From Candidatus Parcubacteria bacterium (lineage in GTDB: Bacteria > Patescibacteriota > Saccharimonadia > UBA4664 > JBIOIQ01), in the NCBI GenBank assembly GCA_963718875.1, contig OY970378.1, positions 754,433-818,432 of the forward strand: 64,000 nt of DNA. Direction: 5' to 3'. Under the pieces are notes generated by a model that saw only the letters and a program-made list of their open reading frames with translations, made no database searches and had not been told where the DNA came from. Within the stretch, counting starts at the first letter, position 1; each line of letters opens with the position of its first letter. Position numbers and translations under genes: made by a program. This document shows, in pieces, positions 3,561-45,342 of this stretch.

Positions 3561-3877
3561 TGATACAACCTCTTTCGTATTATAGCTCTAGTATAACACG
3601 TACATGCGCTTGCTTGCCACGAGTGAGTATTAGAGAAGCTTTTAAAAACGTGCTTGTACTCTGGTTGATAAAATTAGGCATTTAAGCTACGATTTGGCAG
3701 TTGTAAATGATGGTCGCAGGGGCTATGGTCTGTGTTGATTGGTGCGGCATGAGACGTTCAAATTTAGATGCAGTTTAAGGAGATGTGAGCACAGCAAGCG
3801 AGCCGTACATAAAAGGTACGGCGAGTGCGGAGCGCAGACGTCGACACAGAAATGCGGTAAATTTGAACGTAGAATTA

Positions 3878-3963
3878 GGGCGAGTGGTGAAATGGTATAC
3901 ACGCTAGCATGAGGGGCTAGTGACCGCAAGGTCGTGGAGGTTCAAGTCCTCTCTCGCCCACCA
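3878..3963 (+). tRNA. tRNA-Leu (anticodon GAG), long variable arm
   Basis: Manual fold: acceptor GGGCGAG/CTCGCCC, anticodon stem CTAGC/GCTAG with loop ATGAGGG, long variable arm, T-arm GGAGG-TTCAAGT-CCTCT, CCA encoded. Confidence 0.7.
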
Positions 3964-4048
3964 AAGCAATCTTCGCTTTTTTATCAAACACTTTATTAAA
4001 AATGCTCCCGCACCGGCTAACCGGTACGGGAGAAAATGGTGCAAGAAT

Positions 4049-4816
4049 CTACATGCCGACCGCGTGAAAACCGCCATCGGCGTGGATGATCTCACCAGTT
4101 GTGGCGGGGAGCCAGTCTGACAACAGAGCCACACAGGTTCTAGCGACCGACTTGGGGTCTTTGGCGTCCCAGCCTAGAGGAGCTCGAGCATCCCAGGGTT
4201 CGGCGATAGCGTCGAAGCCGGCAATGGATCTGGCGGCTACTGTCTTGAGCGGTCCTGCCGAAACCAGGTTGACCCTGACGCTGTACTGACCCAAGTCACG
4301 AGCGAGGTAGCGGGCAGTAGATTCCAGCGCTGCCTTTGCCACACCCATCCAGTTGTAGGACGGCCATGCTTGGCTGGCGTCAAAGTCAAGCCCAACAATG
4401 GAGCCGCCACCTTTCATCAACAGCAAAAGAGTTTCGGCTAGCGCTTTGAGAGAGAAAGCTGACGTCTGGACGGCCACGGACACGTCAGGCCATGGCGCAG
4501 CTAGAAAATCGCCTCCGATACAGGATGCCGGGCCATAGGCGATGGCGTGGAGCACTCCGTCTAAGTGGTCCCAGCGATTACCAAGGTCAGTAGCCAATGA
4601 GGCTAAGTGTTCCAAATCATTAACATCCACCTCCAGCACATCGGGGACGGGAAACAATCTACTGGCTGTTCGTCTGGTCACGCTCATGGCTCGACCGAAG
4701 CTGGTCAAGACTATTTCGGCGCCTTCACCCTGAGCCACCTTGGCCACTTCGTACGCAATCGAGTCGGAGTTAAGGACTCCCGTTATCAACAACCGCTTGC
4801 CATCCAGCAGCCCCAT
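4049..4816 (-). CDS. fabI: enoyl-ACP reductase, NADH-dependent (FabI/InhA type); high-GC island gene
   Basis: SDR-fold enoyl reductase signature (GKRLLITGV...SIAY, Y..K catalytic region, DGGFHA C-terminal motif as in InhA). Visibly GC-rich codons. Confidence 0.8.
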   Translation of the reverse strand: MGLLDGKRLLITGVLNSDSIAYEVAKVAQGEGAEIVLTSFGRAMSVTRRTASRLFPVPDVLEVDVNDLEHLASLATDLGNRWDHLDGVLHAIAYGPASCIGGDFLAAPWPDVSVAVQTSAFSLKALAETLLLLMKGGGSIVGLDFDASQAWPSYNWMGVAKAALESTARYLARDLGQYSVRVNLVSAGPLKTVAARSIAGFDAIAEPWDARAPLGWDAKDPKSVARTCVALLSDWLPATTGEIIHADGGFHAVGM

Positions 4817-4965
4817 TGGGGTCTCCTTTGATCGTTCTTAGGGACGGGTCAAGTAATAACACACTTTGATTGAAAATTACAGCATAAGTGGAGCGGTGTT
4901 AGAATTAAAACGCGTGAGCGCCTCCCGTACTGGCAAGATGCTCAGCGCGGAAGGCGCGTCGGGGA

Positions 4966-5637
4966 TTAGGGGTCGGTAGAGTTGGGTACTGCCTGAGCTA
5001 ACTCAGACCAGTGCTCATGCAAAAGCTGTCCTTCTACCCAGGCGAGAGCTAGCATGATGACCTGCCACTGGCGATCTTCCCCCTCACCCCCTGTGTGGCT
5101 CCACGTTTTGCCATCAATAAACACGCACTCGATGGCGTGTACGTAATTTTCAACCGGCTCGAAGATAAGCACCAAACTTCCTGGTTGTTGCCTGCCATCA
5201 TCATCGAACCTCTCCACTATGGCTCGAACATAAACGGTACCATCTGTGCCCTTAAATGGCTTTGCTTCGGTAACTTTTGCCCAGCTATCAAACCACAATT
5301 GTTCGATCTGGATCCTGAGAGCTCGCTCTTCGCCTTGAAGCTGGAACAATCGGTCTTTTTCCTGGCGTCGCAACCTTTCCTTCTTAGTACTTTCAGATCG
5401 GGCGAAGTTTTTGAGGGCTGTATCGACCACAAAAAGCATGAGGACCGAAGTCGCAATGAATATCCATCCAATGACTTTTTTGTGGCGCACAACGAAGCCA
5501 ATTTCCGGGAGCACAACGAAGCCAATTGCAAGACAAACAAAAGCGTCGAATGTCTTTTTGAATGCCCCGTACCGATCCTGCCATTTAGTGGAGCTGTATT
5601 TGTACACGAATTCCTCCCATCGAATGGCCGTCTGCAA
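4966..5637 (-). CDS. hypothetical membrane protein
   Basis: 223-aa track ORF with two TM segments and a charged coiled-coil stretch. Overlapping ORFs 5095..5661(+) and 5217..5861(-) judged spurious. Confidence 0.45.
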   Translation of the reverse strand: MQTAIRWEEFVYKYSSTKWQDRYGAFKKTFDAFVCLAIGFVVLPEIGFVVRHKKVIGWIFIATSVLMLFVVDTALKNFARSESTKKERLRRQEKDRLFQLQGEERALRIQIEQLWFDSWAKVTEAKPFKGTDGTVYVRAIVERFDDDGRQQPGSLVLIFEPVENYVHAIECVFIDGKTWSHTGGEGEDRQWQVIMLALAWVEGQLLHEHWSELAQAVPNSTDP

Positions 5638-6151
5638 GATTGCGCGGCGAGGATGAGCTGATTATAGTCAGCTAGCTTAACTTGTGCAATTAAAGCGATC
5701 AGCTGTGTTTTCATAGCAGCCAACGCAGAGCGGCAAAGAACCTTCTCAGCTTTGGCCGGTACAACTAGATAATGAGACTGAGATTTTCGGGAAAGACTAT
5801 GTTTTGACTTTTTTTTGGGGGGTAAATGTATAGCGTCTATCGGAGCGATTTTCGACTTCACCGATCACGGCGGGCTGAAGGACATGATCATTTTCTGGCA
5901 TTCCCCACAACTCGGACAACTCTTATTAACGGGTTAGCGGGGTATTAGTCATTTATAACCTATGTTTTGGTTATATCCATTTTGTAATTAGACAGTACAT
6001 ATAAACATTGTGGTAGCTAAGCGCAAAAAGTTGTGAGTTTAGCTAGCGCCTGGCCAGACCAAGATGTTTATTCTTATATAATACAGGTCTAAATTTTATT
6101 TTATGTTCTAACTATATTCAGCTTATAAGCTTAGATAACCACCAGAGGAGT

Positions 6152-7360
6152 TTGCTTGCCGTGAGCCAGGCTTCGGATATTGCAAAAAGACAACCTTTTA
6201 GTAGAGACGATAAGCCACTTTCGGGCAATCAGCTTTTAGATACATTAGCCGAGCTAAGCTCCTCTAAGGCAACCCTAGAAGAAGACCGCATTCGCAACCA
6301 GGCTTTACTTAATAGTTTGGGCGAGGGATTAATTGTTATCGACCAGGACGGCATTATTACAACCATCAATCCCAAAGCGGCTGAGATCTTAGGAGTCACG
6401 GAGACTGAATTGTTAGGAGAGTGGTTCCCACGCGCCGTTCAAGCTGTAGACTCTGGAGGTAGGGTGATCCAAACTTTGAAACGTCCTATCATCCAGGCTT
6501 TGTCGCAAGGTCATGCTGTATCTGGAAACTCAAATTATGTCTGCAATGATGGTAGCATAATTCCGGTAGCTTCAAATGTTGCTCCTGTGGTGGTAAACGG
6601 GCGACCCGTGGGTGCTATTGAAGTGTTCCGCGATATTACCGAAGAACAAGCTTTAGAGCGGGCTAAAGACGAGTTTGTTTCGCTGGCGTCACATCAGTTA
6701 CGCACGCCTGCAACTGCAGTTAAGGCAATTTTGGCCATGCTCGTAAGTGGTGATTTTGGCGAAATGACCCCAAGGCAAAAGCATTTTATAACTAAGGCCA
6801 TCTCTACTAATGATCGTCAGCTGGAGATCATTGAAGACATGCTTCATGCTGCTAGAATTGACGCAGGCAAGATGCAACTTTCTTTGGAGACAGTGGAGCT
6901 GGTGGGGATGTGCAATGAAGTAGTGCGAGAGCAGCTGCGAGACATCGAGAGTCGCAAACAAACCATTAATATTCGTCGGCCATCACAGGAGTTGTTTGTT
7001 AAAGCCGATGCTACAAAACTACGTATGGTTTTGGAGAACCTCATTTCCAATGCCCATAAATATACCCCCAACGGCGGTAGAATAGATATCAGGACAGTAG
7101 TGACAACCCCTACAGTCCGGGTTGAGGTAGCCGACACTGGGGTGGGTATTAAAAAATCTGATTTAAATAAACTGTTTGATAAGTTTTCTCGTATCGATAA
7201 CCAGCTATCAGCTAAAGTAGGCGGCAGCGGGTTAGGGTTATACTTAGTCAAACACATAATTAATTTACACGAAGGCAATATACACGTGGAGTCTAAACTT
7301 GGTGAAGGGAGTACGTTTACGGTGGAGCTACCAATGCTTGCTAGGTCTAAGGCTTTGTGA
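6152..7360 (+). CDS. sensor histidine kinase, cytoplasmic, with PAS domain
   Basis: PAS-like region (GLIVIDQDGII), HisKA H-box SHQLRTP, HATPase_c N/G boxes (NAHKYTP, GGSGLGL). Confidence 0.8.
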   Translation: MLAVSQASDIAKRQPFSRDDKPLSGNQLLDTLAELSSSKATLEEDRIRNQALLNSLGEGLIVIDQDGIITTINPKAAEILGVTETELLGEWFPRAVQAVDSGGRVIQTLKRPIIQALSQGHAVSGNSNYVCNDGSIIPVASNVAPVVVNGRPVGAIEVFRDITEEQALERAKDEFVSLASHQLRTPATAVKAILAMLVSGDFGEMTPRQKHFITKAISTNDRQLEIIEDMLHAARIDAGKMQLSLETVELVGMCNEVVREQLRDIESRKQTINIRRPSQELFVKADATKLRMVLENLISNAHKYTPNGGRIDIRTVVTTPTVRVEVADTGVGIKKSDLNKLFDKFSRIDNQLSAKVGGSGLGLYLVKHIINLHEGNIHVESKLGEGSTFTVELPMLARSKAL

Positions 7361-15293: not shown

Positions 15294-15364
15294 TTTGAAA
15301 AATTGATTTTTATGACATTAAATGGTACTATAGTATTCTACCGATACGGAAGGAGGTGGTCCAG

Positions 15365-15718
15365 ATGGCCACCGATGTACAAGAAGAACTCAAGACGTTC
15401 GAGTTCAACTCTCACAACGTCAAGCAGGGCGACCGTTTCCACCTCGACCACGACGGCGGGCAAATAGTTATCGTCATCACTGACACGGAGTACAACGGAC
15501 GCAGCCACAACAGTCGCGACATCATTGGCATCGCCGCCGACCGCCAGGGCGAGTGGTGCGGACCCTGGGGTCGCATCATCTTCTACCACCCGATCGAGCT
15601 CGGAAAGGAGACAGACGCCACGTTCAACCAGCGTGGCGTCCACATTAAGCGACTCGAGGTGGTCCCTACCCAACTGGTCCGCGTACGCGACGGGAAACAC
15701 GAGCAGCTGCTCGGCTAG
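15365..15718 (+). CDS. hypothetical protein encoded in a high-GC island, driven by an AT-rich promoter
   Basis: GGAGGAGG RBS 7 nt before ATG; upstream TTGATT-N17-TATAGT; ORF visibly GC-rich; downstream 13-bp-stem terminator (GAGGCCCGCAGAA...TTCTGCGGGCCTC + TTTCTTG). Confidence 0.5.
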   Translation: MATDVQEELKTFEFNSHNVKQGDRFHLDHDGGQIVIVITDTEYNGRSHNSRDIIGIAADRQGEWCGPWGRIIFYHPIELGKETDATFNQRGVHIKRLEVVPTQLVRVRDGKHEQLLG

Positions 15719-18180: not shown

Positions 18181-19119
18181 CTACCCCTGGTCAAGGCCTC
18201 CGTCAAAGCGGCTTCTATCGACTGACGGATCGTTGGCGGATACCACCGCTTGAACGCCCGTATCCGGTGTGCCGCCGGGAGGCGGTGGAGCATCGAGGGC
18301 GAACTCTGCCGGCGTCGGTATAGGAGGCCTTGGGTGTCGACCGATGCCTTCAATTGCCTTTTCGACCGTCCTATTGGCAGCCTCCGTGAACCTTGCAAGC
18401 TGACGCTCAAGCGCACCGTACCGCGCCTCACTCAGATCGAGTTGCTCACGCAGATCGGCGTTGATTCGCTCCTGCGCCGACAGGTCTTCCAGTGCTTGGC
18501 CATGAGTCTGCACCAGCTCCCGGACCCTTGCCAAGAGAATTTGCAACTGACCTTCTCGAGCCGCCAGGTCAGACGCGATCGACTCGACCATCTCTAGGAG
18601 ATCGGCGACGGTGGGCTGGGGGTTGGGTACATCTACGTCTTCCCGTCCCTGTTCTACGATCGCTGGCGAGTGGGCACGAACTTCCTGGAGGACTGCTCTC
18701 CTGATGTCCGCAAGCTCTACCCCTAGCTTGACCAGAACTTGGCATCCTACTGCATCTTCGTCTCTGAGTAGGCCGAGCAGGATGTGCGCTGGGGTTATGA
18801 CCTCACTCTCGCTCGGCCCTTGAGGCGGCACTAGAAGAGCTTCACGTACCGACAGCTCGAGAACCTTTTTGGCTCGAGGAGTAAAAGGAATGCGGCCGCT
18901 AGGCGATGATTCTCCCAGACCAATGTCCTCCTCTACTTGCTTTCGGACGCATCCGAGAGTAACCCCGAGTCCGTCGAGGACACTGGCCGCGTCTCCTCCT
19001 TCTCGGATCAAGCCGAGCAGGATGTGCTCGGAACCGATGTAGCTGTGGTGGAGCTGGCGCGCCTCCTCCTGAGCCAAGACGACGACACGTCGGGCACGTT
19101 CGGTGAATCGTTCGTACAT
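18181..19119 (-). CDS. Clp N-terminal (Clp_N repeat) domain protein with coiled-coil and Pro-rich C-terminus; high-GC island gene
   Basis: Two Clp_N repeats (FTERARRVVVLAQEEARQLHHSYIGSEHILLGLIRE... and ...ITPAHILLGLLRDED), no AAA+ domain; strongly GC-rich codons. Confidence 0.65.
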   Translation of the reverse strand: MYERFTERARRVVVLAQEEARQLHHSYIGSEHILLGLIREGGDAASVLDGLGVTLGCVRKQVEEDIGLGESSPSGRIPFTPRAKKVLELSVREALLVPPQGPSESEVITPAHILLGLLRDEDAVGCQVLVKLGVELADIRRAVLQEVRAHSPAIVEQGREDVDVPNPQPTVADLLEMVESIASDLAAREGQLQILLARVRELVQTHGQALEDLSAQERINADLREQLDLSEARYGALERQLARFTEAANRTVEKAIEGIGRHPRPPIPTPAEFALDAPPPPGGTPDTGVQAVVSANDPSVDRSRFDGGLDQG

Positions 19120-19498
19120 TTTCGGTCCCCCTTAGGGATCGGTGCTACTCGGTTGGGATGGTACTCGCAAAAGCTGTATGAGGCTGGTTTGACCTCACAA
19201 AAAACGCCAATATATTTTACTGCTTTTGGGCGTTTGTGTCAAAAATAATTGTTTGTGAATCTTGAAACCCCTTAAACTTTTTGTCATCCTCCGACTTGAT
19301 CGGAGGATCTCGGCTAGATTCCCTACCCGGAGCGCCAAGCCAGGTAATAGTTGGGCTTGGCTTTCCGATAGGGAATGACACAAAATGGTGTGTTGATAAT
19401 TGCATTTGCCCTGTCTGCCGAGCCACTTTGAGAGTGACCCGGCAGACAGCATTGGACGATGGACTTCACTACTTGGTTTGCTTGGACTGATGAGGGGG

Positions 19499-20494
19499 CT
19501 AGCGAGGAGTAACCGCCCGGCGGATGTTACCCACCAAGTCTCCGGCCACCATCTCCGCCGCTAGGCCAACGGCGTTGAAGATAGCACGGCTCGATGCAGA
19601 GCCGTGGCTGATGATGCAGACCCCGTCGACGCCCAACAGAGCGGCGCCGCCGTAGGTGTCGGGGTCAAGCTCAGCTTGCAGAGGCAGGAGAGCCGGCAAC
19701 AGGACCTTGGTGGCCTCGCGAGCCTCCTCAGTTGATGTCATCGCTCGGAGAAGGGCGTCAACAACCACCCGAACGGACCCTTCGAGGGTCTTGAGGACGA
19801 CGTTGCCGGTGAATCCGTCGGTAACCACCACATCGGCCGCGTCAGTCAGGACGTCACGGCCTTCCACGTTGCCTATGAAGCGGCCTACCGATAGGGCGCC
19901 TGCCTCAGCCAGCAGGGCATGCGCCCCTTTGACCAGTTCGTTGCCCTTGCTTTTCTCCTCTCCGATGGAAAGGAGCCCAACGGTCGGCTCGTCCTTGCCC
20001 AGACGCAAAACGGCGTAGGCCGCCCCCATCTGAGCAAACTGCAACAGCCAGGGCGGCGTGCACTCGGCGTTGGCTCCACTGTCGAGGAGGACAGTGGGAC
20101 TGGAGCCGGGTACGGGGAGCATTGTAGCGATAGCCGGACGGGCAACGCCGGCGATGCGACCCATGCGAAGCAAGGCACTAGCCATAGCCGCACCGGTATT
20201 TCCGGCACTCACCATGGCACTGGCTCGCCCGTCGCGTACCGCTTCGGCTGCTCGCACCATACTGGCGTCCTTCTTGCGTCGGACTCCCTGCATGGCATCG
20301 TCACCCATTTCGATGACCTCGCTCGCGGGCCAACATTCGAGATCACCGGTGTGGAGTTCTTGCAATACTTCGGCTTGACCAACCAGAACCACGGGGACGC
20401 CGAACCGCTCTGCGGCCTCGCGGGCACCTGCCACAATCTCTCCGGGGCCTTTGTCACCCCCCATCACGTCTACTGCAATCGGTAGCTCTGGCAT
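19499..20494 (-). CDS. plsX: phosphate acyltransferase PlsX; high-GC island gene
   Basis: PlsX signatures (IAVDVMGGD..., GNTGA, DGFTGNVVLK, ISHGSAS); GC-rich codon usage. Confidence 0.85.
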   Translation of the reverse strand: MPELPIAVDVMGGDKGPGEIVAGAREAAERFGVPVVLVGQAEVLQELHTGDLECWPASEVIEMGDDAMQGVRRKKDASMVRAAEAVRDGRASAMVSAGNTGAAMASALLRMGRIAGVARPAIATMLPVPGSSPTVLLDSGANAECTPPWLLQFAQMGAAYAVLRLGKDEPTVGLLSIGEEKSKGNELVKGAHALLAEAGALSVGRFIGNVEGRDVLTDAADVVVTDGFTGNVVLKTLEGSVRVVVDALLRAMTSTEEAREATKVLLPALLPLQAELDPDTYGGAALLGVDGVCIISHGSASSRAIFNAVGLAAEMVAGDLVGNIRRAVTPR

Positions 20495-25970: not shown

Positions 25971-26312
25971 TCAGCCCACCGGAACAAAGACACAGCTGAA
26001 ACCATTCAGGAGCGCGCTGCTGACGATCACCGTCCCGTTCTGGATCCTGACAGCCGGGTCGTCAAACATTTCGGTACCTTCAGAGGTTTCGACGCTGAGG
26101 CGGACGCAGTTTGGCGTCCTGATGACAGTCACTTCTACAACCGTCGCGAACGAGATTCTTGATCCGGCGGCAGCACCCGCAACAGTGGCGACGATCGTAA
26201 CCTCTTCTTGAAGGAGAGCCGACTTGATCGCCCTGATGACTTCTTTGTGCTCTCGGTCCGAGCCTTGTAGCCGTAATTCCTCCAAGTAGGGCTCAGTGGC
26301 TTGGGTGGGCAT
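25971..26312 (-). CDS. hypothetical protein, high-GC island gene
   Basis: 113-aa GC-rich ORF. It is followed on its 3' side by a perfect 13-bp-stem hairpin (GAAGGGCGGTCGC-TTGC-GAGCGACCGCCCTTC, 25921-25953). Confidence 0.45.
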   Translation of the reverse strand: MPTQATEPYLEELRLQGSDREHKEVIRAIKSALLQEEVTIVATVAGAAAGSRISFATVVEVTVIRTPNCVRLSVETSEGTEMFDDPAVRIQNGTVIVSSALLNGFSCVFVPVG

Positions 26313-29418: not shown

Positions 29419-30891
29419 TCATCTGAGGTGCTCCTTAACGACTTGGGCTTTGGCGGGTCCAACTACATCAACCAGGGCGTTAAAATCAGCCGTCTTCAGC
29501 CCTTGGACACTGCCAAAGACTTTGATTAGTTTTTTGCGGGTAGCTGGACCTACCCCTGGAACTGAGTCCAGAATAGAACTAGTTTGACGGTGACCTTTTA
29601 AAAGGCTATGGTACGTTACAGCAAAACGATGAGCTTCGTCGCGTACTCGCTGCAAGAGCTGTAAAACATGTGAAGACTTAGGGAGTAAAATGACTTCGAA
29701 GTCATTATTTGACATAATCCAAGCTTCGTTATCCCAATGACCGCTTGATGCTTGACTTGTACTTTCAGAGCGCCGAATAATTTCCTCTTCGCGCTTGGCA
29801 AGCCCGATAGTGGGAATGTTAATTCCCCGCTCTTCCAAAACCCCCAAAGCAGCAGCCAACTGACCTTTGCCCCCGTCAATCAAGATGAGGTCTGGCTTGG
29901 CCCATTGCTCGAGGTTTTTACTACTGAAGCGCCGCTCTATAACTTCACGCATATGGGCAAAATCATCATTACCGACCAGCCGCATTTTGAAACGGCGATA
30001 CTCATCTCGGTTGGGTACACCGTCATTAAATACCACCATACTGGCCACGTTATCAGTCCCTTGCATGTGCGAAATGTCGTAGGCCTCAATTCGACGCGGA
30101 AGGCCTTTTAACTGCAATCTTTCGCTTAAGCCCACTAAGGCCTGATCTAACGTGAGGTCAAATAGCTCTTTGTCGCCAAAAATCATTTGCTTAGATAGGG
30201 ATTGTAAATCGCGCAACTGGTCGCGAGATTTACTGGCAGCTTCAAAGTCTTGGCGCTTAGCAGCCCGCTCCATATCGCGCTGTATTTGTTGTAAAAGCTT
30301 GTTTTTGTCGCCACGGATGTACATTTCCAGCTGTTTTATTTGCCTCCGGTAGTCGACTGGTGTAATGGCATTTTCTTCGGGGTTAGGGCATAGCCCTAGA
30401 TGAGCCTGTAAACAAGCTCGCTGTGGCAGTGGGTCGTGTGTGACATAAGGGAAAATGCGCCGCAAGTACTTCATGGCCCGCTTCATGGCATCAGCCGAGG
30501 TAAAGGGGCCAAAATAAGTCGCTTTGTCGTCTAGTGGGCGGCGAACATACGAAACCACCGGATAGACTTGAGTGCCAACCTTTATATAATTCCAGTGCTT
30601 GTCGTCCTTGAGGTCTACATTGTATTTGGGCCGGTAGCGCTTAATCATTTCGCTTTCAAGAAACAAGGCTTCAACCTCGCTCCCCACTACCATCCAGTCG
30701 GTGTCGGCAATCTCCTGGATCAAAAGAACGGTTTTGAGATCACGGTTTTTGGTGTTTTGAAAGTATGAGCCAACTCGATTTTTAAGTATTGCAGCTTTAC
30801 CTACGTAAATGATTTTTCCCACCGTGTCCTTATGGAAGTATACGCCCGGTTCAGAAGGGAGGTTTTTTAATTTTTCTTTAAGCGTGGTCAT
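29419..30891 (-). CDS. uvrC: excinuclease ABC subunit C
   Basis: N-terminal GIY-YIG (PGVYFHKD...IYVGKA), UvrBC-interaction region, RNaseH-like endonuclease and C-terminal HhH (VPGVGPATRKKL). Start placed at MTTLKEKL rather than the upstream alternative start. Confidence 0.85.
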   Translation of the reverse strand: MTTLKEKLKNLPSEPGVYFHKDTVGKIIYVGKAAILKNRVGSYFQNTKNRDLKTVLLIQEIADTDWMVVGSEVEALFLESEMIKRYRPKYNVDLKDDKHWNYIKVGTQVYPVVSYVRRPLDDKATYFGPFTSADAMKRAMKYLRRIFPYVTHDPLPQRACLQAHLGLCPNPEENAITPVDYRRQIKQLEMYIRGDKNKLLQQIQRDMERAAKRQDFEAASKSRDQLRDLQSLSKQMIFGDKELFDLTLDQALVGLSERLQLKGLPRRIEAYDISHMQGTDNVASMVVFNDGVPNRDEYRRFKMRLVGNDDFAHMREVIERRFSSKNLEQWAKPDLILIDGGKGQLAAALGVLEERGINIPTIGLAKREEEIIRRSESTSQASSGHWDNEAWIMSNNDFEVILLPKSSHVLQLLQRVRDEAHRFAVTYHSLLKGHRQTSSILDSVPGVGPATRKKLIKVFGSVQGLKTADFNALVDVVGPAKAQVVKEHLR

Positions 30892-31172
30892 GTTTCTATT
30901 ATAGCAAGCTGGCAATAACCCTTTATTGGCTGAGCCTTGCCAGCCATGAGCGCAGTCGAATGGTCGAAGCCTCTCGCTAGTATTAAAAAACAACTTCTAC
31001 GAGCCACTCCTGGCCTTCGATTACACTCAGGCAGTAAGAATGTAGCCTTTTTCCGAGTTGTCTTGATCTAGCCCCAGCGGCCGCCATTATGGTGGTCGCA
31101 TTTTTTATAATAAACAAACAGCGCCCTGGCAGGGAACTGCTTGCGCTAGTTCTCGACCACGGACGCTTGAGA

Positions 31173-31685
31173 TCAGGTCATGCCTCCCCAAGGAGATGCG
31201 AGAAGCCATGATGGAACGAAATGATCCGGGAGTGGTTCATCTTGCTCCTGATACGGCAGGAAGCCGATGCGATGGCAGTACCACTCCAACACCGCCACAA
31301 GCAGGCCGAGAGATACCAAGATCTGTGCGACAAGCAGCCACGCTACGTACGGTCGACCGTGGCCTGTTGTATCGATGAAGACTTGACCTGATCGGCCCAG
31401 CCACACTCGAGTCGTCTTCTGGTCGCCAAACTCAGTGGAAAGGTTGGCTGGGCGGGTTACCGGCAACCCATCACGCCCGATGTAGGTGACACCGAACAGG
31501 GTTGTCGAGGTGGTTTTTGACCCAACTTGGGAACTGATATTGGTACTCACAACGCCAACAATTGGACTTCCCCACTCTTGCTGGTTGCGCGCATCGAGGC
31601 GGGCAGCGAGCACCAGAAGCTGGATACTGGCAACCACCACTAGGACCATGACCACAACCTTACTCGGTACTAACTTCTTCGACAT
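31173..31685 (-). CDS. membrane protein (DUF3592-like: TM - beta-rich domain - TM), high-GC island gene
   Basis: 170-aa GC-rich ORF with N- and C-terminal hydrophobic helices. Confidence 0.45.
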   Translation of the reverse strand: MSKKLVPSKVVVMVLVVVASIQLLVLAARLDARNQQEWGSPIVGVVSTNISSQVGSKTTSTTLFGVTYIGRDGLPVTRPANLSTEFGDQKTTRVWLGRSGQVFIDTTGHGRPYVAWLLVAQILVSLGLLVAVLEWYCHRIGFLPYQEQDEPLPDHFVPSWLLASPWGGMT

Positions 31686-31975: not shown

Positions 31976-32488
31976 ATGAAGTTAGGCTTACTTTTTGGCT
32001 CGTTTGACCCAATTCATAATGGGCATTTATCAGTAGTTCAACAAGCCTTTAAAGACGCCTCATGTAATCAAGTTTTGCTAATAGTCCAGCCATCAAATAA
32101 CTATAAAAAAACTTTTCCGCAAGCCACCCTAGATCAACGGATACAGATGGCCAAGTTGGCAGTGAGCGATATTCCAAATGTCGAGGTTAATAAGTTGAGT
32201 TCAACGGTACCGCCGGAACACAGCATCGCCTCTACACTGAACCAATTAAAACAGCTGGATCATAAGCAAGAGTTAGTTCTACTCCTTGGAGATGACTTAG
32301 CTCAAACTATGCCTTACTGGCCCGATTATGATCAAATTATGAAATTCTGCCAGATATTTGTAGCTAAGCGTAGGGTCAGTGATGTCTCTTCCCGACAGAT
32401 TCGTAGTGCGGTCGAGGCTAAGGAACCTCTAGGCAGGCTTTTGCCTCAAAATGTGGCCAATTACATCAATGAACATAATTTATATTGA
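31976..32488 (+). CDS. nadD: nicotinate-nucleotide adenylyltransferase
   Basis: GLLFGSFDPIHNGHL (HxGH nucleotidyltransferase motif) and a late SxxxxR motif region. Confidence 0.75.
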   Translation: MKLGLLFGSFDPIHNGHLSVVQQAFKDASCNQVLLIVQPSNNYKKTFPQATLDQRIQMAKLAVSDIPNVEVNKLSSTVPPEHSIASTLNQLKQLDHKQELVLLLGDDLAQTMPYWPDYDQIMKFCQIFVAKRRVSDVSSRQIRSAVEAKEPLGRLLPQNVANYINEHNLY

Positions 32489-32514
32489 CAAATGTAAGCG
32501 TAAGTGCTATAATG

Positions 32515-33560
32515 CTGCAATCCTGAGTTTCCTGAATTCACCCCTCAATCAGGACAGTCTCTCGTAAAACTCCTTTCTCTTTAGCCATTTCAATAGCGGA
32601 CATATATCCCAGGATCTTCCTGGGTTTGTTGTTTATGATCGTAATGATACGCTGCAATTCTTTGTTCGTCACGGTGGCTAGATCCATGCCTTTGGGCAAG
32701 TAGTGCCGAATCATTCGGTTGGCGTTTTCCACCCCTCCTTTTTGCCAGCTAGAATAGGGGTCACAGAAAAAAACGAGCATATCGAGCAATCTGTGCCAAC
32801 GGTTCTCGATACCGTTGTCGAGAGTCAGACTGCTGATGAGAGCAAGACCAGTTTGGAAGAGCTGATGGCTCCATTAAAGCTCACCGGACACAAGTCTGGG
32901 ATGGGTCTAGCAGCAATCAGTCTGGTGACTCGTTCCTGAATCACTACGATTGCTGCTTTTGATCCAGTCCGCTTGCCGCTAACGATGGTATCCCCCTCAT
33001 AGTGGCCCACTTCGCTCCGGACGGTAGCTTCATGGGGGCGCTCTGTAATACTCACCCGATCTGGAATCATCACCCGATCGGTCTTTGGTTTGCGCTTCTT
33101 TGGTCTGTACCTACGGGAGGGCAGGTAGTCACAGTACTTCTGCCCTCTGGCGCTGTCGAGCCATTCGTAGATGGCTGTCTTAGAGGCATAGTAACCGTGC
33201 TGATCTTTTTTTAGTCGTCCCGCTATCTCATCGGGATTCCAGCCATCCATGAGGCGCACAATGATGTACCAGCGCAAATCATCATTCTCCTGGATCTTCT
33301 TGCCCTGGTACTTGGCATACTTGCGTTTGACGTAGGCTTTTTGTTTGGCGATGCGGGCATTGTAGCCTTCCGGGGTCTTATTACGCTTCACCTCATCACT
33401 GATGGTATTGGGGCTCCGGCCCAAAGCCCGACCAATGGCCCTAAGAGTGTGACCTTTATTTAAAAGAATTTCTATTTCCGAACGCTCTGCCGATGTTAGT
33501 TTAGTAGCTTTTACCATGATGACACTCTACGGGTTGACTGTCCTGATTCAAAACGGAATG
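32515..33560 (-). mobile_element. IS30-family insertion sequence (transposase frameshifted)
   Basis: Terminal inverted repeats: CTCAATCAGGACAGTCTC at the left end vs the reverse complement of the right end TGAATCAGGACAGTCAAC. Element about 1.05 kb, within the IS30 size range. Confidence 0.65.
32538..33517 (-). pseudogene. IS30-family DDE transposase split into two ORFs (32825..33517 N-terminal HTH/DDE part; 32538..32789 C-terminal part)
   Basis: N-terminal ORF MVKATKLTSAERSEIEILLNKGHTLRAIGRALGRSPNTISDEVKRN (IS30 HTH). C-terminal ORF ...YSSWQKGGVENANRMIRHYLPKG (IS30 DDE C-terminal signature). The two ORFs are out of frame. Confidence 0.7.
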
Positions 33561-33635
33561 GAGGTATATAGCTCAGCGCCCCTCGACATTTTGCTACTTT
33601 CATCTATCCGTCCTGCCAACCCAAGGAGCATTTCC

Positions 33636-34184
33636 GTGACTGTGACCCAGACCCGCCCTGCCCCCCTCACCGAGGACGAGGAGCGGCTCATTGCAAAGCT
33701 CATCACCAACCCGCGAGTGCCCAGCCGAGACGTGGCTCGCCTCCAATTGGACGACCTCGAGGTTGTCCGCCGTACCCTGTTCTTCGTCACCCGCGACCTG
33801 GCTACCCAGCCCCCCACGCTGCATCCCGTCATCGTGGTACAGCCGAAGCAGGTGCAGACGCTCCCCGCCAACCTGGAAGAGCTTGAGAGGCTGGTCCACG
33901 ACCTCTACTCGAAGCTGGAAGAGTTGAAGGCCATCGTGCCGCAGATTCTCGCCGGCCGGATCGACACCTGCCTCTCGAACGCCGTTGAGGCCTACGGAGA
34001 CACGCAGCGTTTGTTGAGGTGGATCGACAGGGCCAAGGACCTGATCAAGCTGATCGAGTCCAACCCGATGTTCCGATCGACCACGCCTCCGGCTGTCGAT
34101 CTCGACGCACTCAAGGCTCGCGACGCCAAGCTGAGTACCACCCCCAAGAAGCCCCGTTTCAAGAAGGGCAAGAAGCAGAAGTAG
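33636..34184 (+). CDS. hypothetical protein, high-GC island gene abutting the IS30
   Basis: AAGGAG RBS + GTG start at 33636; GC-rich; C-terminal Lys-rich tail. Many spurious antisense ORFs overlap it. Confidence 0.4.
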   Translation: MTVTQTRPAPLTEDEERLIAKLITNPRVPSRDVARLQLDDLEVVRRTLFFVTRDLATQPPTLHPVIVVQPKQVQTLPANLEELERLVHDLYSKLEELKAIVPQILAGRIDTCLSNAVEAYGDTQRLLRWIDRAKDLIKLIESNPMFRSTTPPAVDLDALKARDAKLSTTPKKPRFKKGKKQK

Positions 34185-34188
34185 CAAC

Positions 34189-34713
34189 ATGTTCGAGCGT
34201 CCCGGCCGGTGCCCCACGTGGGTGCCGGTCGGGCCTCCGACCCAACGTCTGAAGTCACTTGAGGCTTTAGGTCGAGGTTCAATTGACAGCTGCAAATATC
34301 AGCGATATGGTTTGAGACGTCCACCGCACATCCCACAAGGAGGTAGTACATACGATAACCAGCTGCTAATAAGTCCGGAGGATGTAATCGGCTGGAGCAA
34401 CGAGTTTGAATATCGCTCGCTTCAGCTGTTCGTCTCCGTCCAAGGTGTCACGCATTTCATTGGTAGTGTCGGCCCATGCGCCCAGCGTTGCGGCATTTGC
34501 CGAGACACCCACTACTACGCCAAGAATTGCAACGGGTTGCCAGTTAAACCCGATAACGGCTACGGCTTCAATTCGGGAAGAAGTGCCGTCGTGGCTCTGC
34601 TCGAACAAAGCCGGTTCTACGCCCACAAAGGCAGATGGCTAAACCAAAGCCAATGGGATCGGCTGCAGCGCAAGCTACCTCACCAGCAGCCTAAGCGTTG
34701 GTACTCGCTGTAA
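34189..34713 (+). CDS. hypothetical Cys-containing protein (coding status uncertain)
   Basis: 174-aa track ORF of mixed composition; no convincing start/RBS identified. Confidence 0.25.
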   Translation: MFERPGRCPTWVPVGPPTQRLKSLEALGRGSIDSCKYQRYGLRRPPHIPQGGSTYDNQLLISPEDVIGWSNEFEYRSLQLFVSVQGVTHFIGSVGPCAQRCGICRDTHYYAKNCNGLPVKPDNGYGFNSGRSAVVALLEQSRFYAHKGRWLNQSQWDRLQRKLPHQQPKRWYSL

Positions 34714-35003
34714 TCGGGTCGAGTCGGGGTTTAAACTCCCCGGCTCGGCTCATTCTTTTATGTGCGCACAAAAGGTTTTTTAGTTTGCGTTTTGACTGAT
34801 TTTTTGGGGCTTTCCTACTCTATGCAGGTTCTTGTGTTTTTTTAGTAAACTTGGAATTGTAATAGATTGCATTACAATCCATTACAATCTTGATGATGCA
34901 AAAAAGTTATAGGAGCGTAGAGGTATTGAAAGCGATTTCGCGTCAAATTTAGATGATGTTTCCTGCTCCGATCGAGAATGACAGTTTAAAGACGGTTGGG
35001 CCA

Positions 35004-38112: not shown

Positions 38113-38625
38113 TCAGCCGAGCAGCTTGTGGATCACCCGGGCCGCTTCTTGACGCTTGACCACTAGAACGATCGCGAAGACTGCAACGACAAGGACGAGG
38201 ATAAAGATGGTCACTCTAGCTGGAGTATGCGAGATCAACCCCCAGGCGATAGTGCTGTAAATGATGGGCCACCAGACGGCACGCATCAGCTCAAAAGATC
38301 CAGAGAGGGCGTCGGCGACCCAGACACCTAGAATCAGCACCACGCCGAACCAAATCCAGAGGTCACCGGCGACCATCATGCCGATGAGCGGGCTGACAAG
38401 GAGTACGCGGTCAGACTGACCGTCAAGGTGGTAGCCAAACTCAGTTGCAACTCCCCACCTTTTGGCCAGGAAGCCATCGAGAAGATCACTTCCGAATCCG
38501 CCCACAACGAGCCAGATGGCGGCGGAGGTCCAGTGGTTTTCGATAATGAGAGTGTAGACATAAACCGCCATCAACAGCCGAAGCGCGCTAATGACATTGA
38601 CCGTGATGAGCTTGAAAGTTCTCAT
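38113..38625 (-). CDS. CDP-alcohol phosphatidyltransferase family protein; high-GC island gene
   Basis: D-G-x2-A-R...G-x3-D-x3-D motif (DGFLAKRWGVATEFGYHLDGQSDRV) in a multi-TM protein; GC-rich. Confidence 0.7.
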   Translation of the reverse strand: MRTFKLITVNVISALRLLMAVYVYTLIIENHWTSAAIWLVVGGFGSDLLDGFLAKRWGVATEFGYHLDGQSDRVLLVSPLIGMMVAGDLWIWFGVVLILGVWVADALSGSFELMRAVWWPIIYSTIAWGLISHTPARVTIFILVLVVAVFAIVLVVKRQEAARVIHKLLG

Positions 38626-38777
38626 GTCTTTTCTCCTGCTCGAGCTTTGGGATGTGCGAAGGGTGTTTATAATAACATACTTTCACGTAAAATACAATGT
38701 TTTACTGTCTGAAGAGGCAAAGAGCCCGGGTCGACGTCATTGTCGACTTGCGGGCTCTGTTGTTTTTCGCCTGTTCC

Positions 38778-39500
38778 CTACTTGGATCGGACCTTGCTCT
38801 TACCAGTCCGGTAGTTGTACTCGATATGGTCTCCAGTCTTGGTCATGGGGGCGATGGTGTCGAGGACTACCATCGAGACGAAGCCGGCGAAGCCGATGGC
38901 GAAGGTCAACGTGACCAACGTACTTCGTTGCGTGACCAGAAGCGGCACAAGTGCCGAGAGCATCCAGTAGGCCACAATGGCGAAGATGAAGGTGTGCCAG
39001 AGCTTGGAGGGGCTGAGCTCCTGCGCCATGGTGTAGTAGCCGCACTTGACCGGGGACAGCTCCATGAGCAGCGATAGGCCGAAGCCGAACGCTAGGAGGG
39101 TAAGGTGCCACCAGCGCTGGGTGTACCACCCGTTGGAGGGTGTCCAGGCCCGCAGAGCGTACCCCATCCCAATGAGGATCATTGGGATGAAGAGGGTGTC
39201 GTTGAAGCGGAAGGTCCAGTAGCGCGGAATCGTGGGGTCTCCCTCGACGAGGCGCCTGATCACGAGGATGGCCACGAAGTCGGCCAAGATCATGATGGCC
39301 GCGGCGGCGAATGGTCCCCACGGACGGGCGACCCAGCGGTAGATGTCGAGTGCTGGCAGAATGCCGGCGGAACGTGACTTGCCAGTGGCGGGCTTGGAGG
39401 CGGCGAGGAGCATCAGCTCCAGCGCTACAAACACGAAGAGCAGATAGATAGCAGTCCGACGGGGCATGACTCCTCCAGAGGGAGTAGTAGGGATATTCAA
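38778..39500 (-). CDS. polytopic membrane protein, hypothetical; high-GC island gene
   Basis: 240-aa hydrophobic ORF. The alternative frame 38800..39564 is Arg-rich and typical of an off-frame in GC-rich DNA. Confidence 0.5.
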   Translation of the reverse strand: MNIPTTPSGGVMPRRTAIYLLFVFVALELMLLAASKPATGKSRSAGILPALDIYRWVARPWGPFAAAAIMILADFVAILVIRRLVEGDPTIPRYWTFRFNDTLFIPMILIGMGYALRAWTPSNGWYTQRWWHLTLLAFGFGLSLLMELSPVKCGYYTMAQELSPSKLWHTFIFAIVAYWMLSALVPLLVTQRSTLVTLTFAIGFAGFVSMVVLDTIAPMTKTGDHIEYNYRTGKSKVRSK

Positions 39501-41998: not shown

Positions 41999-43348
41999 TT
42001 AAGTGATGTTTGCAGGCACAAACCGCCGGCCGAGTAACTTTAAGGCGGCTGTGCGGTGCTGCCCTAGGCCAACGGTGTAAACAATTTTTCCATTTGGCAG
42101 ATTATAGCGATTAAGATTGATATTATTTGTCCCTTGACTGCCCCGGTAGACATACTCACCCGTAAGCATGGTGGCCGCTAATTCAACAATATAGTCGCGG
42201 CTATCCATTAACCCTTTTCCATGAGCTTGCTTCATAACTCCAGGGAGCGAGCTGCCATCCCAACTCAAAAAATCATTTGATTTAATTACTCTGTCCAGGT
42301 CAACTTCTTGAGTTAATTCTTCATCCGGAGTTTTTGGATTTGGAATTAAAGGCTTCGAGTCAGACTCTTCTGGCAAGTGGATCAGCGCGGCCGCCTCCTT
42401 CTGCCTCTCAAGCAATATTGGCTTTACTTCTAGTCTTAGCCAAGCTCTAAGCTCTGCTTCTAGTCGAGCACGAGACTCCTCCAGCACAGACAGATGACCC
42501 AATTCCTCTTCATAAACTGGGTCATGAATTGTACTTTCATCTTGAGCTAACCTATAAATGGTGACTTTTACTATCCGATTACTGAGATCACTTAAGCCAC
42601 AAGAAATTTCTTTCGCCTTTAACTCCGCTGCTATGTTTTTATACTGCTGATCGTCCTCAATACGGCTCAACTGCAAATTACCAGGCAAGTCAGGCTGAGT
42701 CTGCCGCTCTTTACTCTCCCAATCAAGATTGAGCTGCTCGGTGCTAGTTCGAGCCACTGAAGCTACCAGCTCATACACCCCTTGGGTTCCAAGTTGGTCA
42801 TAAGTAGTAGACAAAAGCAGCGCTTCGCCCTCATCCTCAAAAGAGGCAAGCCCACTGTACCGACTGTAAATTAAATCACTGTCTCTAGATCCTGGATGCC
42901 ACCGCCGTTGTAGCTGGCGACCGATAAGTTCACCATACTTACGAGCGGATGCTCCAGGCTCCGCGGCTTCAAGCTGCTTTAGTTCTGCCCTCAAAGCTGT
43001 CCTGTATACGTGAAGGCGACGCCTATAGCCATCGATAAGCTCGGAACGCACAATACTGTCTGGCGCAGAAGTTTCTGCTTTATAGTGGTCTATTTGTTCC
43101 TGACTCACCAATAGGCAAATTTGGTCGAAGCGGTCTACACCTTCTTCGGATGGCAGCTCTTGTAGCTTACGCTCAACTTTATGCCGGGCTAAATCTGAAA
43201 GTCTTTGATCTTTTTCGTCCTCGCGCCTAGCTACCTCAATTCTTATTTCTTCGGCACTTAACTCAGCTTGAATCGGCATAGGATTGGAGTCTCCCAGAAT
43301 TGGCGTAATGCTGTTTTCGCCTGGCTCGCCGTTTTGCTCAATGCTCAC
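41999..43348 (-). CDS. hypothetical protein (449 aa), charged/coiled-coil rich
   Basis: Track ORF; stop overlaps the uvrB start (43345-43348). Confidence 0.45.
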
Positions 43349-45342
43349 TTGAGACGCTTCGCCAAGGCCTTGTCGCCCATAGCCTCCTTGATTTCGGCAA
43401 TTTGATCACGCAGGGCTGCCGCTTTTTCGAACTGCAGGTTTTGAGAGGCCAAATCCATTTGGGCAGTCAAGCCTTTGATAAGATTCTTGCGCTCTTCTTT
43501 GGGAATAGCCTCGATATCAAATTTTTTGACATCAGCCGTCTCGGCTGCTTCCTCTTTTTGCATGCGTTCATGCATAGCTGATTGAATGCCGGCGGGCGTA
43601 ATGCCATGTTCAAGATTGTAAGCCTCTTGGATTTTGCGCCGTGCGGCCGTGGTATCTAGGGCGTATTTCATGGACTTAGTTATTTTGTCGGCATACATCA
43701 CGACCCGACCTTCCACATGCCTAGCGGCCCGGCCAATTGTTTGGACCAGTGCAGCCTCCCCCCGCAAAAAACCTTCTTTATCGGCATCCAAAATGGCCAC
43801 TAACGACACCTCCGGCAAGTCTAGCCCTTCCCGTAGTAGGTTAATGCCTACAACTACGTCATAGACACCTAGGCGTAAGTCCCTCAAAATATCACTACGG
43901 TCAAGGGTGTGGACCTCAGAGTGCAAATATTGGACTTTTATGCCGAGTTCTTTAAGATATTCAGTTAAATCTTCCGACATACGCTTGGTCAAAGTCGTAA
44001 CTAGAACCCGCTGGCCTTTGGCAATAGTAGCCCGAACTTCTGCCAGTAAATCATCTACCTGATGTTCTATTGGGCGCACCTCAATAATTGGGTCAATCAA
44101 ACCCGTGGGGCGAATAACCTGCTCAACCACCTGGGTGCTGCGGGATAGTTCATACTCCGATGGTGTAGCCGAGACATACACCACTTGGTTGAGGTGCCGA
44201 TCAAACTCGGCAAACTTGAGCGGCCGATTATCAAGCGCGCTGGGCAAACGAAAGCCGTATTCTACCAAGGTTTCTTTACGAGCACGGTCGCCGTTGAACA
44301 TACCTCGCACCTGCGGCACGCTCATGTGGCTTTCGTCAATAAACATTAAAAAATCGTCGGGGAAATAGTCCAGTAATGTGGCTGGCTGTTCGCCGGGCTC
44401 TCGGTTGCTTAAATAACGGGAATAATTTTCAATACCACTAACAAAACCAGTTTGCTCAATCATTTCCAAATCATATTTGGTACGTTGGCTTAGACGTTGG
44501 GCCTCTATCAGTCTGTCATTGCCCTTTAATTCTACCACTCGTTGGTCGAGGTCTTGTTTGATTTGGCTAACTGCAAGTTGCAGTTTTTCTTGAGGAGTAA
44601 CAAAGTGCTTACCGGGAAAAATCTTAATCTCGGCTGGCTGACTTAAAACTTCGCCCGTCAGCGGTTCAATTTGCTTGATTTTTTCTATAGTATCGCCAAA
44701 AAACTCCAGGCGATAAGCTGTTTCGCTGCCAATTGGAAAAATGTCGACGGTGTCCCCTCGCACTCTAAAGTTACCACGGGTAAAATCCATGTCGTTGCGA
44801 TGGTACTGGACGTCAGTTAGTTGACGTAAAAGTTTATCCCGCTTGCGAATTGACCCAGTTTCAACGTCAATCGTCATGGCTGTATAATCTTCGACATTTC
44901 CAAGGCCGTATATACAGCTAACTGACGCCACGATCAATACGTCCCGCCGAGTCAAAAGACTCATGGTGGCTGCATGCCGTAAACGATCGATTTCTTCATT
45001 GATAGAACTGTCTTTTTCAATAAAAGTATCGCTGCGCGGAATATAAGCTTCGGGTTGGTAGTAGTCATAGTAGCTTACAAAATATTGCACGGCATTGTCC
45101 GGAAAAAACTGGCGGAACTCACCATAGAGTTGCGCAGCTAAGGTTTTGTTGTGGGATAACACCAGAGTTGGGCGCTGTTGCTGCGCCACAATGTTGGCCA
45201 TGGTAAAAGTTTTACCAGAGCCAGTTACGCCCAACAAAGTCTGTTCGCGATCGCCACGATTTAGGCCTTCGACAAGCTTTTCGATGGCCTTAGGCTGGTC
45301 ACCGGTGGGTTTGTATTCGCTCTTCAGCTTAAAATCGGTCAT
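43345..45342 (-). CDS. uvrB: excinuclease ABC subunit B
   Basis: Helicase motifs (GVTGSGKT Walker A, DESH), beta-hairpin region, C-terminal UVR domain ([15 protein letters not shown]). Confidence 0.9.

Follow-up and report, generated by a model that had tools for sequence, protein, structure and literature searches.

Insertion sequences of the IS30 family are ~1.0-1.25 kb long and end in inverted repeats of 20-30 bp. IS30 of E. coli and IS1655 of Neisseria meningitidis favour short palindromic, A+T-centred sites, and most family members make target duplications of 2-3 bp. Transposition in the family passes through a circular or dimer intermediate with IR-IR junctions. The spacing of the catalytic residues in the family has been quoted as D-(54-61)-D-(33)-E (PMC2516522). 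The family member ISLxc4 from Leifsonia xyli ends in inverted repeats of 28 bp and lacks detectable direct repeats; several of its copies have one common internal lesion, and a run of purines has been put forward as the place of a frameshift (PMC2516522).

The window, meaning the whole 64-kb stretch of DNA that was analysed, adds a new and defective member to this known family. The preferred reading, held at a probability of about 0.85, is that the copy is a simple insertion into the 5' leader of a resident gene, here called orfA. Before the insertion, the order would have been nadD-like gene, consensus promoter, a leader of ~120 nt, orfA, two hairpins, a variable slot (occupied by orfB in the window), a terminator and the convergent uvrA gene; this gene order is still present in related genomes. 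The 1,034-bp element would then have entered the loop of a small hairpin, 17 nt 3' of the -10 box, with its transposase gene facing the promoter.

Limits and family membership of the element

The element and its inverted repeats lie as follows.

32531..33564, minus strand (transposase): IS30-family insertion sequence, 1,034 bp, with ends from the similarity limits to L001/L002/L004
32531..32559, unstranded: 29-bp inverted repeat at the transposase-3' end, with a 13-mer as its inner part (32547-32559)
33536..33564, unstranded: 29-bp inverted repeat at the transposase-5' end, with CCTCCATTCCGTTTTGAATCAGGACA invariant in four elements

The ends are the points beyond which the elements of L001, L002 and L004 no longer match. 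An independent Logan read-assembly contig of 1,034 bp maps exactly to 32531-33564 (by the offset from the ATG at contig position 48), and read-assembly contigs begin or end at the IS ends. The sequence-only reading had recognized a pair of terminal inverted repeats. The pair itself is perfect over 13 nt, with AATCAGGACAGTC at 32547-32559 and its reverse complement at 33536-33548, and at one mismatch or fewer the 13-mer has two matches in 64 kb against 0.06 expected by chance. It is, however, the inner core of the 29-bp repeats and not the terminus; the full repeats are imperfect, matching at 21 of 29 positions.

Like IS30 and IS1655, the element encodes an HTH_38 N-terminus and a DDE domain that match the family model end to end. 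The frame-repaired protein scores 210.2 bits with NCBIfam NF033563 (cut-off 80) over profile positions 1-267 of 267, and PF13936 (HTH_38) scores 61 bits (cut-off 27) at residues 4-46. All three catalytic residues, D176, D234 and E264, are present in that protein. The D-D spacing of 57 fits the IS30 range of 54-61, but the D-E spacing is 29 and not the quoted 33; because the alignment runs without gaps through that stretch, the spacing of 29 is common to the intact 320-aa relatives. The element also resembles the family in its length of ~1 kb, in its imperfect ~29-bp terminal repeats, in having one ORF that fills the element in intact relatives, and in having entered a short palindromic, A+T-centred site. 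It differs from the annotated plasmid-borne members in being only 36-39% identical to their transposases (over 94-97% of the length).

The closest known elements are those of Saccharimonadia and Saccharimonadales (L001, L002, L004; P0002-P0030), at 60-69% protein identity. They share the termini of the window copy: one terminus has CCTCCATTCCGTTTTGAATCAGGACA, the opposite one TGTCCTGATTG.GGG.TGAAT.CAG. Among 5,055 transposase homologues, the nearest intact ones are 61-69% identical and are labelled IS30 family; a genome scan with the transposase as query returned distant elements only, and outside the source genome no copy closer than 69% to the window element is known.

Target-site duplications of 2-3 bp, which the sequence-only reading had proposed to look for, are absent at the true ends 32531/33564, in contrast to the family habit: the plus strand reads GAGTTT, then the IS, then TATATAG (TTT versus TAT). 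They are also absent around the related copies in L002 and L004, and ISLxc4 likewise has no detectable direct repeats. The empty site cannot be rebuilt base by base, because the hairpin loop differs between relatives.

The resident gene, its promoter and its composition

The features on either side of the element are the following.

32485..32513, plus strand: sigma-70 promoter with a perfect consensus (TTGACA-17-TATAAT) and a TG in front of the -10 box (12/12 in the scan)
33565..33635, plus strand: remainder of the orfA leader, with the right half of the hairpin, a conserved box and a Shine-Dalgarno sequence
33636..34184, plus strand: orfA, for an all-helical protein of 182 aa whose C-terminal tail is basic; G+C 0.625, GC3 0.85
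34199..34274, plus strand: two conserved hairpins directly after the orfA stop, within the annotated start of orfB
34189-34713, plus strand: orfB as annotated, 174 aa; true start uncertain
34384..34713, plus strand: conserved C-terminal part of orfB, 109 aa, with a CxxC...H motif; homologue P0125
34716..34761, plus strand: intrinsic-terminator-like hairpin and T run, between the convergent orfB and uvrA

G+C climbs from 0.42-0.48 to 0.61-0.64 at ~33550 and drops again after 34750. The description of a G+C-rich block that adjoins the right inverted repeat and ends in a GC hairpin was thus accurate, the hairpin being a 14-pair stem with a T run at 34716-34751. Of the two ORFs assigned to the block, orfA (33636-34184) stands. 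Its start is the GTG at 33636, behind the Shine-Dalgarno sequence AAGGAG at 33623-33628, and not 33516; this start gives the product on record for the source genome. The second ORF is over-extended: its first third (~65 codons) overlaps the conserved RNA-type hairpins (a G+C-rich stem of 16 pairs at 34199-34235, then another stem-loop at 34238-34274) and is probably non-coding. The sole homologue of orfB, P0125, is 72% identical and starts at the equivalent of residue 66.

Two related genomes, L009 and L011, are free of the IS at this locus, and their UvrA proteins are 91-92% identical to that of the window. Both have the order nadD, promoter, orfA, hairpin, uvrA, with the orfA orthologue in the same position. 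In L009 the nadD-like gene lies at 2397-2912, the orfA orthologue at 3030-3578 and uvrA at 3934-6804; L011 has uvrC, the nadD-like gene, the orfA orthologue and uvrA, as well as a comparable hairpin and T run in the equivalent place. With the IS taken out, the three genomes can be aligned through the promoter, the leader and the hairpins after the stop, and no IS scars were seen in the alignments at the L009 and L011 loci. The G+C-rich block was already in the lineage before the window, L009 and L011 genomes diverged.

The consensus promoter overlaps the nadD-like stop codon and also precedes the orfA orthologues of L009 and L011; by this shared placement, it is the native promoter of orfA. 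The IS lies 17 nt 3' of it, within the orfA leader, and splits the small hairpin into CTGAG at 32523-32527 and CTCAG at 33573-33577. Downstream of the split, the leader retains the conserved box TCGACATTTTGCTAC at 33583-33597. This box and the post-orfA hairpin are each unique in the 64-kb window and so are not dispersed repeats there. The IS probably uncouples orfA from its promoter, and expression of the gene is predicted to be lower, because 1 kb of DNA with two terminator-like sites on the plus strand (32608-32624 and 33320-33336) now separates the two. A promoter scan revealed no hybrid promoter that would read outward from the IS end into orfA. Transcripts that start at the outside promoter would run antisense through the transposase gene.

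The gene itself is lineage-restricted and of unassigned function. A search with the 33636-34184 protein, suggested in the sequence-only reading, returned the homologues P0126 and P0128, with orthologues syntenic at the IS-free loci; among 1.84 billion representatives the family hardly occurs. Neither orfA nor orfB has a credible match in Pfam, NCBIfam, PHROGs, PADLOC or PDB sequences, and metagenome scans (orfB plus P0125; the orfA alignment) and one viral scan gave no matches. The orfA AlphaFold models reach a pLDDT of only 58 and 61, and a Foldseek search of PDB with the orfA model returned generic helical bundles only (E > 0.3), from which no function was drawn. Two candidates were set aside. 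The 3,000-aa protein P0127 matches orfA in 18 stretches, the best at query residues 73-105, which are predicted to be helical; this is a probable repeat or low-complexity match and not homology. An antisense ORF of 231 aa at 33600-34295 is not intact in L009 or L011, and its codon-position G+C is as expected for the reverse of a high-GC3 gene.

A compositional puzzle is left by orfA. Its GC3 is 0.85, 0.93 and 0.88 in the three genomes, where the proteins are only 39-47% identical and the neighbouring genes have GC3 values of 0.40-0.68. With translational selection as a candidate cause of the high GC3, eight further window ORFs were scanned, and no ribosomal or elongation-factor gene was among them. 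One explanation, which is unlikely, is that orfA is a tiny, strongly promoted cassette whose extreme GC3 is actively maintained or repeatedly re-acquired from a high-G+C donor. Replacement would take place at one fixed locus, with the conserved promoter and leader and the post-stop hairpin as recombination flanks, and the IS would be unrelated to it; in another form of the idea, covered by the same low estimate, the cassette would move or invert on flanking inverted repeats. The actinobacterial host of these episymbionts is a candidate donor. The persistence of a high GC3 despite low protein identity is consistent with such a history, as are flanks that are more conserved than the gene between them (identities of 74% across 290 nt and 84% across 121 nt), an inverted repeat of 14-16 nt that brackets orfA in all three genomes, and the near absence of the family from the searched representatives. 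Against it, no recombinase or second locus was found, and no homologue of orfA in a donor was detected among the 1.84 billion representatives, metagenome contigs or viral contigs. The downstream arm of this repeat shares bases with the conserved KK(Q)K-stop codons and may be kept for other reasons, the centre of the bracketing repeat lacks co-variation, and only three lineages are sampled. If the idea were true, the IS30 copy would be a bystander that has just switched the orfA cassette off in this strain.

The split transposase

The frameshift that separates the two parts of the transposase can be located within a few nucleotides.

32825..33517, minus strand: N-terminal transposase ORF, 230 aa, with HTH_38 and D176, the first Asp of the catalytic triad; its last 13 residues are out of frame
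32538..32870, minus strand: C-terminal transposase reading frame, -1 relative to the N-terminal ORF and open from 32870
32862..32866, minus strand: site of a one-base deletion, ATCAG in the window versus ATCCAG / GTCCGA in relatives (DNA and protein alignment)

The sequence-only reading had found an IS30 transposase split into ORFs of 230 aa (32825-33517, minus strand) and 83 aa (32538-32789, minus strand) in different frames, and both ORFs and the family assignment hold (NF033563, 210 bits). The 83-aa ORF is the part of the C-terminal frame that begins at the TTG at 32789; the frame as a whole encodes both the second Asp (in LTLDNG) and the Glu (in VENAN). A single long ORF, absent from the window copy, is present in the intact elements of L001 (326 codons) and L002 (333 codons), and related elements in general have single transposase ORFs of 320-333 aa; the L004 element has several frameshifts. 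When one C is restored in the deletion site, the sequence reads ...SFNGAIQLFQTG... and encodes a 326-aa protein.

The split had been ascribed to either a pseudogene or a programmed frameshift, and comparison with the relatives favours the first: by alignment, the split is a one-base deletion that makes the gene a pseudogene. The lost base lay between the first and second catalytic Asp. The gene can then yield only an HTH protein of 230 aa in which the DDE triad is incomplete, and the window copy would thus be unable to move itself.

The lesion is genuine, and the genome has more than one copy of the element. At least one further IS copy of the same 1.19-Mb genome has the lesion, namely a variant copy (P0001, with P36L) on the same 1,189,924-bp contig as the window IS, and the identical 230-aa product is present in a separate read assembly. 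Two or more copies with one inactivating lesion are a poor fit to a dead element unless conversion or mobilisation in trans is invoked. The shared frameshift would have had a single origin, with gene conversion or mobilisation in trans thereafter. No proteins more than 69% identical to the transposase, other than truncated ones, were found among the homologues, and an intact copy elsewhere in the source genome is excluded only indirectly by this search.

Programmed -1 frameshifting in an active element would explain why at least two genome copies have the identical frame change and why the read assembly merges copies into one 1,034-bp contig. There is a precedent of sorts in the Leifsonia paper, which proposed a frameshift in one IS30-family element and called it unusual for the family (PMC2516522). 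Like the window IS, ISLxc4 has multiple copies with a common internal lesion, but the purine run that was proposed as its frameshift site has no counterpart here. The 56-nt stretch around the frame overlap contains no in-frame X XXY YYZ slippery heptamer and no homopolymer of four or more. Programmed slippage would have to fall within 8 nt, just where the relatives simply carry one extra base, and the two-ORF layout of the IS1 / IS3 style is not conserved in the relatives at 61-69% identity, which have one ORF of 320-333 aa. Programmed frameshifting is therefore very improbable.

Age of the G+C-rich block

In the sequence-only reading, the juxtaposition of IS and block suggested either that the IS delivered foreign DNA or that it inserted later beside it. 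The evidence supports later insertion: the orfA/orfB block would predate the IS and would not have been carried by it. Delivery as cargo, in a composite or one-ended transposition unit, could account for a composition step within ~10-40 nt of the IS end and for an orfA GC3 of 0.85 when the median for 61 window ORFs is 0.45. The block is indeed unlike the host genome in composition by this measure. Against delivery, the IS-free L009 and L011 have orfA orthologues at this very locus, preceded by the shared promoter and leader, a finding that had been named in advance as one that would count against it and that also leaves a recent arrival of the block without support. The sole orfB homologue likewise adjoins uvrA. 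The 64-kb window contains no second IS copy, second transposase or extra pair of IS ends, the IS-only contig shows a repeated unit that stops at 33564, and other G+C-rich patches in the window have no adjoining IS. A contribution of the IS to the origin of the block in this way is extremely improbable; the cargo role of the IS30 copy is refuted, and the case is an ordinary one. An assembly error at the junction, by which a high-G+C contaminant was fused to the genome at a multicopy repeat (a place where mis-joins tend to arise), can be dismissed as next to impossible, since orfA, orfB and uvrA lie together on a 2,720-bp contig of an independent read assembly and two further assemblies, made from other samples, show this gene order too.

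For scans of this kind, the lesson is that a composition step beside an IS should not be read as a sign of cargo; in this case the element inserted at the edge of a G+C-rich gene that was already present. The annotation gains exact ends for a Saccharimonadia IS30 subgroup, the status of the window copy as a pseudogene, a corrected start for orfA and the recognition that orfB is over-extended. For the biology, the value is modest: the locus is a natural case in which an orphan gene, otherwise apparently equipped for strong expression, has probably been uncoupled from its promoter.

The locus with and without the insertion sequence

Between a nadD-like gene and uvrA lie an IS30-family element and two unnamed, G+C-rich + strand open reading frames, orfA and orfB. 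The sequence-only reading had suggested that the IS either delivered this block as foreign DNA or was later inserted beside it.

Features of the window and of two loci without the IS (L009, L011)
29419-30993, - strand: uvrC
31173-31685, - strand: membrane-type ORF, 170 aa
31976-32488, + strand: nadD-like gene, cytidylyltransferase fold
32485-32513: promoter conserved before orfA (L009 2909-2937; L011 6366-6394)
32531-33564, - strand: IS, transposase split in two ORFs
33636-34184, + strand: orfA, 182 aa
34189-34713, + strand: orfB as annotated, 174 aa
34275-34715: variable slot, orfA hairpins to uvrA-side terminator (L009 3640-3933; L011 7245-7920)
35004-37895, - strand: uvrA
L009: nadD-like gene 2397-2912, orfA orthologue 3030-3578, uvrA 3934-6804
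L011: uvrC, two more genes, nadD-like gene 5860-6369, orfA orthologue 6491-7150, unrelated 114-aa ORF, uvrA

A word-indexed search with orfA recovered orfA alone. When 1.84 billion representatives were searched exhaustively with HMMER, two true homologues emerged, P0126 (47% identical) and P0128 (39%), giving a family of three members in that set. Both come from IS-free loci with the gene order of the window, where the neighbouring proteins are 91-92% (UvrA), 78% (UvrC, compared with L011 only) and 46-48% (NadD) identical to those of the window. When the IS is removed, the window aligns with L009 and L011 over the promoter, leader, Shine-Dalgarno sequence, stop codon and two post-stop hairpins. 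Orthologues at this position in IS-free relatives were what the sequence-only reading had named as refuting it; the IS inserted into an existing locus. Delivery of foreign DNA, with orfA and orfB as cargo, is thus rejected, since orfA orthologues occupy the same locus in both relatives without any IS, and it is the later insertion that stands. The IS copy is inserted in the leader of orfA, a resident orphan gene.

The L011 locus also has uvrC and uvrA on either side, ordered as in the window; in the window, uvrB follows at 43345-45342, so that uvrA, uvrB and uvrC fall together within 16 kb.

The G+C step at about 33550, seen in the original sequence, was found again, in a window with a mean G+C of 0.467. 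Further G+C-rich, high-GC3 patches occur at 4049-4816, 15356-15718, 18181-20494, 25971-26312 and 38113-39500. Several carry lipid-related genes (enoyl-ACP reductase-like, PlsX, CDP-alcohol phosphatidyltransferase), one of the remainder encodes a Clp_N-domain protein and the others are without assigned function. None of these patches in the window adjoins an IS. Because they hold recognisable genes and no IS, mixed composition is a trait of this genome.

Identity, limits and decay of the element

The assignment to the IS30 family is borne out: the frame-repaired transposase matches the family model NF033563 over its full length (score 210 bits, cut-off 80), the N-terminal ORF contains an HTH_38 domain, and annotated plasmid-borne members are 36-39% identical. 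Products of the stretch are recorded from one contig of 1,189,924 bp, and the closest transposase relatives are found in Saccharimonadia and Saccharimonadales assemblies, which suggests a genome of the Saccharibacteria type. DNA similarity to related elements at three other loci (L001, L002, L004) spans window 33564 to 32531 and ends sharply on both sides. The end at the transposase 5' side, CCTCCATTCCGTTTTGAATCAGGACA, is invariant among all four elements, and the opposite end is closed by ...TGAAT(T/G)CAG(G/C). In the read assembly of run ERR12037361, a 1,034-bp contig contains the two transposase ORFs and nothing else, and its ATG at contig position 48 gives an exact fit to 33564-32531; a 2,720-bp contig runs from window 33536, 29 nt inside the IS end, via orfA and orfB into uvrA. 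From the similarity limits and both contigs, the true IS interval is 32531-33564. The same assembly has another break near window 31901, clearly outside the IS and on the upstream side of the nadD-like gene.

The terminal repeats had been recognised only in part: the 13-nt perfect inverted repeat exists (it matches twice in the window, where chance would give 0.06 matches), but it is the inner core of 29-bp repeats with 21/29 positions matching. Target-site duplications of 2-3 bp are absent from the IS ends (GAGTTT / IS / TATATAG), and direct repeats are likewise absent at the L002 and L004 elements. A published IS30-family element is similarly reported to lack direct repeats (PMC2516522). There is no further IS copy, nor a paralogue of orfA or orfB, in the window.

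The two transposase ORFs do lie in different frames, and had been ascribed to either a pseudogene or a programmed frameshift. Intact relatives encode SFNGAI-x-D-x-QTG...SLSLDNG in one frame; the window copy has SFNGAI in one frame and LFQTGLALISSLTLDNG in the -1 frame. DNA alignment (GCCAT-CAGCTC in the window, GCCGTCCGACTC in L001, GCCATCCAGGAC in L004) places a single-base loss at about 32864, and with the base restored the protein has 326 aa and contains D176, D234 and E264 (D-D spacing 57, D-E spacing 29). Programmed frameshifting is rejected, since the frame-overlap stretch lacks a slippery heptamer and any homopolymer of at least 4, and each homologue at 61-69% identity has a single 320-333-aa ORF. 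The missing base and these homologues mark the split transposase as a pseudogene. Since the independent read assembly shows the lesion as well, an error confined to a single assembly is excluded. The IS is a new, unnamed IS30-family member, present here as a defective copy. A related copy on a Saccharibacteria scaffold (L004, 9954-10980) is broken into at least three reading frames, and decayed copies of this subgroup are thus found in other genomes too.

Another 230-aa product, which has a P36L difference and an identical out-of-frame tail, is recorded from the same 1.19-Mb contig. This product and the contig breaks at the IS ends show that the element is multicopy and that the copies carry the same lesion. 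One mutation may have been spread by gene conversion, or the copies may have been mobilised by an intact copy since lost.

The G+C-rich block

orfA is a real + strand gene. It starts at GTG 33636 with AAGGAG upstream, and its codon-position G+C is 0.63/0.39/0.85. Its GC3 is the highest measured in the window (median 0.45 for 61 non-overlapping ORFs) and is 0.85, 0.93 and 0.88 in the window, L009 and L011, against 0.40-0.68 in adjacent genes, while the proteins have diverged to 39-47% identity. A 231-aa antisense ORF over orfA was dismissed as the usual high-GC3 artefact and is not conserved. No match to families, PDB sequences or folds was found; the model is all-helical at low confidence, and a small DNA-binding role, suggested by its three-helix N-terminus and Lys-rich tail, is only a guess. 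An inverted repeat of 14-16 nt (TCGACATTTTGCTAC / GTAGCAACATGTTCGA, window 33583-33597 and 34181-34197) flanks the ORF in all three genomes, its arms recurring in L009 and L011; it is given little weight because its centre lacks co-variation and one of its arms coincides in part with the conserved stop region.

The orfB annotation is probably over-extended at 34189-34383, its N-terminal third. These first 65 or so codons are not gene-like in codon-position G+C and overlie two hairpins conserved in L009, L010 and L011, all without orfB. Over its last 109 residues, orfB shares 72% identity with a homologue, P0125, which begins at the equivalent position (GTA in orfB, not a start codon). On a 4.8-kb metagenome contig, P0125 and uvrA are convergent neighbours. 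The slot differs in content in every relative, being orfB-like, non-coding or occupied by unrelated ORFs such as the 114-aa ORF of L011. The GC hairpin noted at the block end is present (34716-34751), but is not an element boundary; it is a terminator-type structure of the usual sort, lying between two convergent genes.

Probable consequences of the insertion for orfA

The promoter conserved in three diverged genomes overlaps the nadD stop and is a perfect sigma-70 consensus (TTGACA-17-TATAAT, 12/12), its -10 box preceded by TG. The IS entered 17 nt past the -10 box, in the loop of a small CTGAG...CTCAG hairpin with a counterpart in L009 and L011. Because the transposase faces the promoter, the promoter transcript crosses 1,034 bp antisense to it before reaching orfA. 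Two terminator-like sites lie along this + strand path, and a promoter scan found no outward promoter at the IS end. From this arrangement, we infer that the insertion would reduce orfA expression.
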